IMG/VR virus record: IMGVR_UViG_3300037424_001374
Coordinates: 1-31,472 of that record
Origin: a virus
Taxonomy: Duplodnaviria; Caudoviricetes
Length of the DNA: 31,472 nt
Direction: 5' to 3' (one strand)
Shown here piece by piece: positions 2,203 to 2,907 of the stretch. The position numbers and the translations under genes were made by a program. Every line of letters starts with the position of its first letter. Position 1 is the first letter of the stretch. The notes beneath the pieces were generated by a model. That model saw nothing but the letters and a program-made list of their open reading frames with translations, was not told the origin of the DNA and did no database searches.

Positions 2203-2228
2203 CATCGGTACCATTACCTTCCTGGTAA

Positions 2229-2258
2229 TTAAGCAGCCATTAGTTGTTTGTCATTTGT
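2229..2258 (-). other. SsrA-tag-like reading frame TNDKQLMAA*
   Basis: ACA AAT GAC AAA CAA CTA ATG GCT GCT TAA starting at the discriminator base of the tRNA-like domain; resembles ANDENYALAA. Confidence 0.6.
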
Positions 2259-2319
2259 GGAGCTGGAGGTTACGAACCCTCTTCCGTACCTGATGCACGT
2301 CTAAACGATTATCAGCCCC
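2258..2319 (-). ncRNA. Minimal tmRNA-like RNA (tRNA-like domain only)
   Basis: GGGGCUG/CAGCUCC-A acceptor with G3-U70; 13-nt stemless D-loop AUAAUCGUUUAGA; 5-bp CGUGC/GUACG helix; GAA linker; GAGG-GUUCGUAA-CCUC T-arm; CCA not encoded (CAA). Confidence 0.82.
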
Positions 2320-2386
2320 TTGTTTTTTTCCAAGATTCCCAGATAATTACCAGGACAATCACGCTCACAGCAATAAATACATCCAT
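2312..2386 (-). CDS. 24-aa single-pass membrane peptide MDVFIAVSVIVLVIIWESWKKTRG
   Basis: Hand translation; ATG 2 nt after the stop of ORF 2389-2616; hydrophobic helix with basic tail. Confidence 0.6.
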   Translation of the reverse strand: MDVFIAVSVIVLVIIWESWKKTRG

Positions 2387-2388
2387 AT

Positions 2389-2616
2389 TTATTTTTCTGA
2401 TGGTTCATCAGGTACATCTCCACAAGAACCTATTTGTGTGCTCTCTATCTTATCCTTTATCCTCGATTTAATAGCACGCAATTGTGATACGGTCATCCCA
2501 TCCATTTCTTCTTTTATGTCATCACAGGAATCTTTAAACACTTGCCACTGACCATTAAGGTTTATTCGAAATAATTCCTCAAGTTCTGACTTTACTCTAT
2601 CTATTTCTTGTTTCAT
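2389..2616 (-). CDS. Hypothetical protein
   Basis: 75-aa helical ORF tightly packed in the late operon. Confidence 0.7.
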   Translation of the reverse strand: MKQEIDRVKSELEELFRINLNGQWQVFKDSCDDIKEEMDGMTVSQLRAIKSRIKDKIESTQIGSCGDVPDEPSEK

Positions 2617-2619
2617 AAC

Positions 2620-2907
2620 TTACTTTTTTAAAGCTTCAATCTTTGCCTCAATGCTAACTCGCATTAAGTCGATTTCTTTTAACAAAAGCTCGTTTTTAAC
2701 TTTATCTTGCTCAACCATCTTCTCCATAAATGCCATAACTTTCATCAATGCTGTTAGATTTTCTTTCTCAACATCACGAAGCTCTACGTTCAACCTCTCA
2801 ATCTCTGCTTCCTTTTTCTTCTCACGTCCAAGAAAATAGATAACTGCAGCAACGAGCACAGAAAATGCAATACCATATTGCGCTATGTTCATCAATAACT
2901 CTTCCAT
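2620..2907 (-). CDS. Holin-like membrane protein (N-terminal TM helix plus coiled coil)
   Basis: IAQYGIAFSVLVAAVIYFL followed by a charged coiled coil; BhlA-like architecture. Confidence 0.6.
   Translation of the reverse strand: MEELLMNIAQYGIAFSVLVAAVIYFLGREKKKEAEIERLNVELRDVEKENLTALMKVMAFMEKMVEQDKVKNELLLKEIDLMRVSIEAKIEALKK

Follow-up and report, generated by a model that had tools for sequence, protein, structure and literature searches.

Genes for tmRNA have been catalogued in five forms (standard, permuted, intron and two without a CDS), to which 65-bp plastid forms are added (PMC11915505). In the permuted two-piece form, one precursor is cut into two pieces by tRNA-processing enzymes (PMC11915505). 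Ordinary two-piece tmRNA occurs in marine phages (PMC9004378), a reduced cyanobacterial form has been documented (PMC1242208), and in the available part of PMC10085705 the permuted genes named for tmRNA are circular ones only. Phage DS6A is listed as ‘TLD only’ (TLD, tRNA-like domain, here also called the head; PMC4131195), and a DS6A-like molecule is reported to inhibit tmRNA strongly in E. coli, perhaps by titration of SmpB (Mao et al. 2009, cited in PMC4131195 and PMC11915505). Here we analyse a phage locus in which a whole head is followed by a tag-like reading frame.

The window, meaning the whole stretch of DNA analysed, is an entire record of 31,472 bases (34.6% GC, 96% complete by CheckV, with a 131-nt terminal overlap). 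Among the 38 proteins scanned, the minus strand carries genes for terminase, tail, protease and portal proteins that run toward the element, after which a terminator follows, in keeping with the preliminary description, which had placed the element last in the late operon.

2164–2196, no single strand: bidirectional intrinsic terminator, separating the late operon from the convergent ORF 1733–2143

The sole cultured relatives of the portal protein are those of Nonlabens phages P12024S and L (25% identity), and a Bacteroidota host is our guess for this phage. No SmpB was found in the window phage or in the record of its relative L071, described below. Two sigma-factor-like ORFs are present in the 31-kb phage (25240–25794 and 26978–27751, minus strand).

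The head is a 62-nt domain on the minus strand, listed here with its parts in the direction of the RNA and with the evidence for each.

2258–2319, minus strand: tmRNA tRNA-like domain (sequence, RF00023 match, fold, core model)
2319–2313 with 2265–2259, minus strand: acceptor stem of 7 bp with G3.U70 (sequence, centroid fold)
2312–2300, minus strand: stemless D-loop of 13 nt, ending in GA (sequence, RF00023 match, fold)
2299–2285, minus strand: P2, 5 bp and a 5-nt loop (sequence, fold)
2284–2282, minus strand: linker of 3 nt (sequence, fold)
2281–2266, minus strand: short T-arm of 16 nt with a 4-bp T-stem (sequence, centroid fold)
2258, minus strand: discriminator A, with CAA where CCA is expected (sequence)

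Sequence and centroid fold agree on this anatomy (−22.3 kcal/mol, z −2.4; 4 of 200 shuffles are as stable), which is that given in the preliminary description, down to the T-arm that is one base short and the CCA that is not encoded. The identity proposed there is borne out by RF00023, the Rfam tmRNA model, whose local match to the head reaches both model ends at 28 bits (E 1.7e-8, 6 kb searched), below the gathering score of 47; ARAGORN, also suggested as a check, called 0 genes on the head. When 78 other phage cores were used to build a covariance model, with the window's copy left out, the head was the sole match in 31 kb (24.4 bits; its E of ~2e-4 is rough). Identical letters occur in a Logan contig of the probable source run at a depth of 8.3, so the short T-arm is not peculiar to one assembly, although the reads are possibly the same. 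At the level of sequence, window 2319–2258 is thereby confirmed as a tmRNA tRNA-like domain.

The D-stem and anticodon arm of a tRNA-Ala are absent. P2 does not enclose a tag frame and pseudoknots, as it does in standard tmRNA, but closes on its 5-nt loop, and the 5′ acceptor strand precedes the 3′ strand, unlike in permuted two-piece tmRNA, whose model RF04321 gave no row for the window and a partial row for L071 (17 bits, E 0.38). Nor is the head a 3′ fragment of the kind expected of an ssrA attP remnant, both ends being present. In place of a 5-bp T-stem and 7-nt loop with A58 there is the 16-nt arm, without A58; A58 in a 7-nt T-loop was not required by the patterns that collected the cores and is found in 99 of 100 of them (among the matches listed), the window's head being the one exception. 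The 5′ arm of the terminator (2184–2191) is complementary to 8 nt of the 3′ strand of the head (2260–2267), and its 3′ arm repeats them; this repeat is possibly a remnant of a second 3′ end.

Head-only tmRNA is already known, both from DS6A and from ~100 viral cores (among the matches listed). Pattern scans for heads in viral contigs gave 38 and at least 119 stretches, with at least 100 distinct head-like cores including the window's (59–85 nt; a few ordinary tRNAs were dropped from later counts), and a short-T-arm pattern gave 0 matches in viral contigs. The novelty implied by the preliminary description thus falls away, a TLD-only tmRNA having been published for DS6A and such cores being common in viral contigs. 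Four of the head-only RNAs (L217, L232, L282 and L294) are 59 nt long, shorter than the window's, with normal T-arms. In one viral contig, two tRNA-like elements, each with G3.U70 in its acceptor stem, are separated by 95 nt (L264:2001–2076 and 2172–2246), and another (L378:2824–3141, minus strand) carries, amid tRNA genes, a circularly permuted tmRNA called by ARAGORN, with the tag GNNTIQINNYVGLMSA.

Behind the discriminator of the window's head lies a trailer with the following features.

2253–2257, minus strand: 5-nt leader CAAAU (pyrimidine in position −5, A in −4); identical in L071
2229–2252, minus strand: tag-like frame DKQLMAA-stop, lacking a start codon (frame translation, tag score)
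2207–2238, minus strand: H5-like hairpin over the last codons and stop (predicted fold; weak alone, z −1.9)
2203–2211, minus strand: stretch able to pair with the loop and 3′ strand of P2 over 9 bp, interrupted by one bulge; a weak candidate tether

The DKQLMAA frame is in phase with a T-N read from the discriminator and has an in-frame stop upstream, in the D-loop; read-through from the upstream ORF into the tag was ruled out, as the frames differ and the D-loop stop stands in the tag frame. In the structural and genetic literature, H5 of tmRNA is a hairpin holding the last tag codons and the stop (PMC3968760), SmpB binds the four bases preceding the resume codon and contacts H5 (PMC8363625), and A86 is the key base of the resume register, U85C being tolerated (PMC2481249). 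The trailer has the marks of a tmRNA message (no start codon, AA ending, stop in H5, A at −4) but lies downstream of the head, and CAAAU would fit the SmpB resume register by its pyrimidine at −5 and A at −4. The statement in the preliminary description that the mRNA-like region is replaced by a 5-nt loop is therefore incomplete: the P2 loop is 5 nt, and a tag-like frame and H5-like hairpin follow at 2257–2207.

The same layout is present in one relative, L071, which was found by a structural scan among 160 relative loci fetched via the head–tail adaptor-like protein, and not by a tag pattern. Its head is at the same place and is followed by CAAAU, NNESMAMAA-stop, an H5 and a 5+7-bp pseudoknot. 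L071 and L152 are identical over 4686 nt, so only two independent head-then-tag sequences are available; as these are two only, with common ancestry, selection on the tag is not measurable. The window and L071 are not close: their adaptor proteins are 52% identical, with rank 33 of 67 when ordered by distance in the tree. Four-fold sites of the neighbouring gene are still identical at 10 of 19. Their trailers keep CAAAU, the frame offset and M-A-A-stop with a synonymous change, the tags differing in length by 6 nt in frame, and in each ~19–20 unpaired nt precede a hairpin covering the stop; P2, the T-stem and the 3′ strand of H5 diverge. Common to both is a cassette of ~290 nt (GGUUC/GAACC hairpin, 24-aa ORF, head, tag and H5), of which the hairpin is appended to otherwise unrelated ORF ends. 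The peptide motif at the 5′ edge of the cassette is in no other of the loci fetched. A 75-aa ORF of the window resembles a 70-aa ORF of L071 with this 5′ edge appended, and in the lysis region (window 2389–2907, L071:10552–11604) the holin-like ORFs of L071 are followed by a gene for a peptidase M15, where the window has none.

Among the 160 relative loci, 89 (67 distinct) extend at least 1.5 kb downstream. Beyond L071 and L152, no head was found in the 160 loci scanned or in the model-searched records, a coarse first filter making these absences soft: relatives at least 90% complete gave 0 of 15 records, and model searches of relatives matched 1 of 80 metagenome loci and 2 of 50 and 0 of 29 viral records, the second match among the 50 being an ordinary tRNA and rejected. 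The absences in the whole-record search are soft because its filter missed the window's own RF00023 match. With the head missing from the other relatives examined, the cassette appears as a patchy module, and the structural conservation in related phages raised by the preliminary description extends to L071/L152, with the same layout, and to no other relative examined (absences soft). BLAST of the element against cultured phages gave 12 partial chance matches, none spanning it, and the L071 cassette behaved likewise. In a check for expression, one run (X1) gave nothing for the L071 cassette. Pair counts on the alignment A4 are circular, its rows having been selected for pairing.

The tag-like frames were compared with real tags by a score, designed after the tags were seen, that was trained on the 597 distinct tags of the ARAGORN list. 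Among 103 cores, which include ones picked for AA-stop, L071 ranks first (18.7) and the window second (9.5; both ranks among the matches listed). No background window in 40,000 reaches the L071 level and 2 of 40,000 reach the window's, which falls in the lowest quartile of real tags (quartiles 11.7, 16.7 and 19.1). On the sense strand within 400 nt either side, a score of at least 8 occurs only at the window and L071 of 102 cores (among the matches listed), with 1 case in the antisense control around 102 cores; on the upstream partner of other head-only RNAs, no tag frame scored 8 or more (among the matches listed). For the window, sampling of 8984 positions found a plain AA-stop frame at 6, and 20,000 shuffles gave 22; for L071, the counts were 17 among 3902 positions and 180 among 20,000 shuffles. 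Of the 1275 entries in the ARAGORN list, 1185 end in AA and 50 in MAA, the MAA-ending tags including Cytophaga, Chitinophaga and Marivirga (several Bacteroidota); none of the 1275 starts with N, and L071 would resume on an Asn codon.

Four pattern scans for a head plus tag, giving 99, 12, 16 and 16 stretches, yielded no third convincing head with a tag-like AA-stop trailer, returning only L071 and L200. The latter was dropped because the frame of the L200/L430 trailer is the antisense of a small membrane gene, from which it follows that chance AA-stop trailers do occur. The trailer at L430:4090–4125 holds a complement to the 5′ strand and D-loop of its own head, inside the antisense of the membrane gene. 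The heads of L436, L440 and L442 were set aside with low tag scores (3.2, −1.6 and 2.6). AA-stop frames NKKAAA and VSTAPAA stand at the same frame offset after the heads at L436:4001–4102 and L442:4001–4097, that of L436 coinciding with a terminator-like hairpin. In a Palauibacter MAG, a 70-nt tRNA-like element with G3.U70 (L428:6001–6116) lies just after a tRNA-Thr and is followed by a TYSGLAAA-stop frame and a hairpin; it could represent a degenerate tRNA or else a further head followed by a tag.

Because the tag-like frame lies directly behind the head and not inside it, the gene is likely to be a rearranged tmRNA that would be cut into separate pieces and might still tag proteins. That it is a rearranged tmRNA gene with a displaced tag is very probable, and this identity is much more secure than continued tagging. 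As a tentative proposal for its function, the head and a separate coding piece would be cut from the late transcript and, together with SmpB of the host, would free stalled ribosomes and append a degradation tag. The late transcript would end at the terminator; by analogy with established tRNA processing, RNase P would cut at 2319 and RNase Z after 2258, the latter because CCA is not encoded. RNase Z cuts right after the discriminator and is slowed by a C there (PMC7479834), and the base directly after the window's discriminator is C. The head would then gain CCA and an alanine charge and bind host SmpB. Judged from tmRNA–SmpB structures, the coding piece would start exactly at −5 of the resume register, so that SmpB might take hold of the head as well as of the A at −4 and of H5, H5 being the second contact for SmpB and the 30S subunit. 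The product would be Ala followed by DKQLMAA, and the damaged T-arm may lower or abolish activity in the window phage.

The weakest step is the tether, as the coding piece would have to be kept near the head by SmpB and 30S contacts, by pairing of the trailer with P2 or by a leader splint. Trailer–P2 pairing reaches p 0.049 in the window and 0.135 in L071, with a net ~−0.4 and −0.5 kcal/mol; cofolding of trailer and head cannot represent P2 docking, which crosses the acceptor stem, and was not relied on. The tether is not firm: the trailer–P2 pairing is weak and the leader splint is clear only in the window. PK1, or a hairpin substituted for it, is thought necessary for tagging (PMC3968760), and the window cassette has neither PK1 nor a hairpin in its place.

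The absence of a firm tether favours a reading that we regard as less likely but serious, in which the head alone, as in DS6A, competes with host tmRNA for SmpB or frees stalled ribosomes without tagging, and the tag and H5 are a fossil of a full tmRNA gene in which a copy of the 3′ half replaced PK1. The start of the trailer, which resembles an A-N-D tag with its first base replaced at the junction, agrees with such an origin; the ~100 cores without a nearby tag (among the matches listed) imply that the head works alone elsewhere, and the inhibition of tmRNA by the DS6A form in E. coli supplies a precedent (PMC4131195 and PMC11915505). A tag is useless to a decoy, however, and although P2, the T-stem and the partner strand of H5 have turned over between the two phages, both preserve the frame, the register, M-A-A-stop and the hairpin spanning the stop. 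The decoy function put forward in the preliminary description offers no account of the tag frame, resume register and H5-like hairpin that lie behind the head in both the window and L071.

Upstream of the head, the cassette holds a leader with a small ORF and two segments antisense to the elements downstream.

2312–2386, minus strand: hydrophobic ORF of 24 aa with its stop inside the 5′ strand of the TLD; in L071 the stop of the 24-aa counterpart makes use of G1
2344–2355, minus strand: leader segment, a perfect 12-bp complement to the stop/H5 region 2231–2220 (complementarity search)
2402–2430, minus strand: leader hairpin GGUUC/GAACC with a loop that is antisense to the TLD in two parts (5′ border of the cassette in common with L071)

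The loop matches 2262–2255 across the discriminator by 2425–2418 (8/8) and 2295–2286 in P2 by 2415–2406 (10/10). In the window, the 10-bp helix is equalled in 6 of 3000 shuffles and the 12-bp helix in 1 of 3000. At homologous offsets L071 has different letters, which pair with its own P2 (8/10) and its own trailer (12/13) and hardly pair with the P2 or trailer of the window. The L071 pairings are not significant when unanchored (2439 and 1242 of 3000 shuffles); anchored, they are equalled in 1019 of 20,000 (p ~0.05) and 89–224 of 2000 (p 0.04–0.11), and the L071 leader has an 8-bp local alternative pairing. P2 docking is not a general feature of head-only RNAs, since p ≤0.02 is reached upstream by only 4 of 78 and downstream by 1 of 78 (among the matches listed). 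Some 79-nt head-only RNAs (L004:1897–1950, L010 and L003) have, ~30 nt upstream, a stretch complementary to the internal loop of P2 or to the D-loop.

With this leader included, the rearranged-tmRNA reading can be extended to a sixth, non-circularly permuted split form of tmRNA, with the head first, the message after it and the break 5′ of the tag. Its three pieces, released by RNase P and RNase Z, would make up a self-contained trans-translation module of ~120 working bases, in which the leader would splint the head (by P2) to the coding piece (by the stop/H5 region) and would itself be a non-stop mRNA for the 24-aa membrane peptide. We consider this extended version doubtful.

The same leader also allows an unlikely reading in which the element is a processing switch for a small membrane peptide: the head would be an RNase P site whose excision removes the stop of the 24-aa ORF, leaving a non-stop mRNA of the arfA kind (a precedent described in PMC8012679), and the antisense leader would make cutting depend on translation of the final late gene. 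The stop overlaps the 5′ end of the head in both phages, and a hydrophobic ORF so placed is found only in the window and L071 of 99 cores (among the matches listed); against this, some ORF ends there in 22 of 99 cores (among the matches listed), as UGA occurs within the acceptor strand. Pairing with the leader covers the discriminator and P2, and in folds of the full cassette the leader-paired form is favoured over the TLD form in the window, by 3.5 kcal/mol, but loses by 2.9 in L071, where its probability is 0.01. The switch has no need of the tag frame; it is compatible with the tagging proposal and does not exclude it.

That the short T-arm lacks A58, alone among 100 cores (among the matches listed), means that the window's copy may be decaying. 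A cassette once functional and now a pseudogene in the window phage is nevertheless rather improbable. Its model score of 24.4 bits compares with 52.1 for L071 (which is in the training set), the tag score lies in the lowest quartile of real tags, and no other relative examined has the cassette, all 15 records of 90% completeness or more among them. Yet random decay would not spare what is still intact here: the acceptor stem, G3.U70, the end of the D-loop, P2, the open tag frame, a GC content of 53% against 35%, and three perfect long-range complements. A scar of integration at the host ssrA with a coincidental AA-stop frame is very improbable, as the head has both ends, a tyrosine integrase (PF00589) matched in neither of the 2 records (window phage and L071), AA-stop frames are rare by chance (6 among 8984 window positions, 22 among 20,000 shuffles), and the trailer, on the far side of the terminator, shows no evident plus-strand gene, even though the L200/L430 trailer, an antisense of a small membrane gene, was a third AA-stop case.

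In tagging tmRNAs catalogued so far, the message is tied to the head on the head's 5′ side. A message behind an intact head makes it testable whether the 5′ link is needed and what the minimum size of a working trans-translation RNA is, and head-then-tag, if true, would amount to a non-circular permutation of tmRNA that occurs in nature. Should the tag be no more than a fossil, a route from full tmRNA to the many head-only phage RNAs is still shown by the cassette. Standard tools overlook all these head-type genes.

Like the TLD-only tmRNA of DS6A (JN698994; tmID 11587), the window has a phage-encoded one-piece head with G3.U70, a stemless D-loop, a closed P2, a T-arm and a CCA that is not fully encoded. 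The DS6A RNA differs in its 80 nt, internal loop, second small hairpin and normal T-arm, and its trailer is without a tag-like frame, whereas the 62-nt head of the window is followed by a tag frame and H5; the window head thus fits the phage head-only core model but departs from the DS6A type, in which no tag frame is present. The CDS-less organelle tmRNAs (jakobid mitochondria and the ~65-bp Mallomonadaceae plastid form) are of similar size and likewise head only; unlike the window, they are organellar, with a host-encoded SmpB and no tag described. With standard one-piece tmRNA (RF00023), the window shares the head anatomy, the AA-ending tag, the stop in a hairpin and the Y-A resume register, but its tag stands after the acceptor stem's 3′ end and not between the strands of P2, PK1 is absent and the total is ~120 nt. 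The head-then-tag order was not found in the open-access literature; by the form descriptions it is none of the five catalogued tmRNA forms, though such a gene could be filed in the tmRNA database as ‘standard, no CDS’. Permuted two-piece tmRNA (RF04321, RF01849–51) resembles the proposed RNA in its reduced pseudoknot ring, but in that form the head is divided between the pieces, which pair through it, whereas the window head is whole. In known two-piece tmRNAs, the break lies after the tag; in the window it falls just before the tag, an order that no circular permutation gives.
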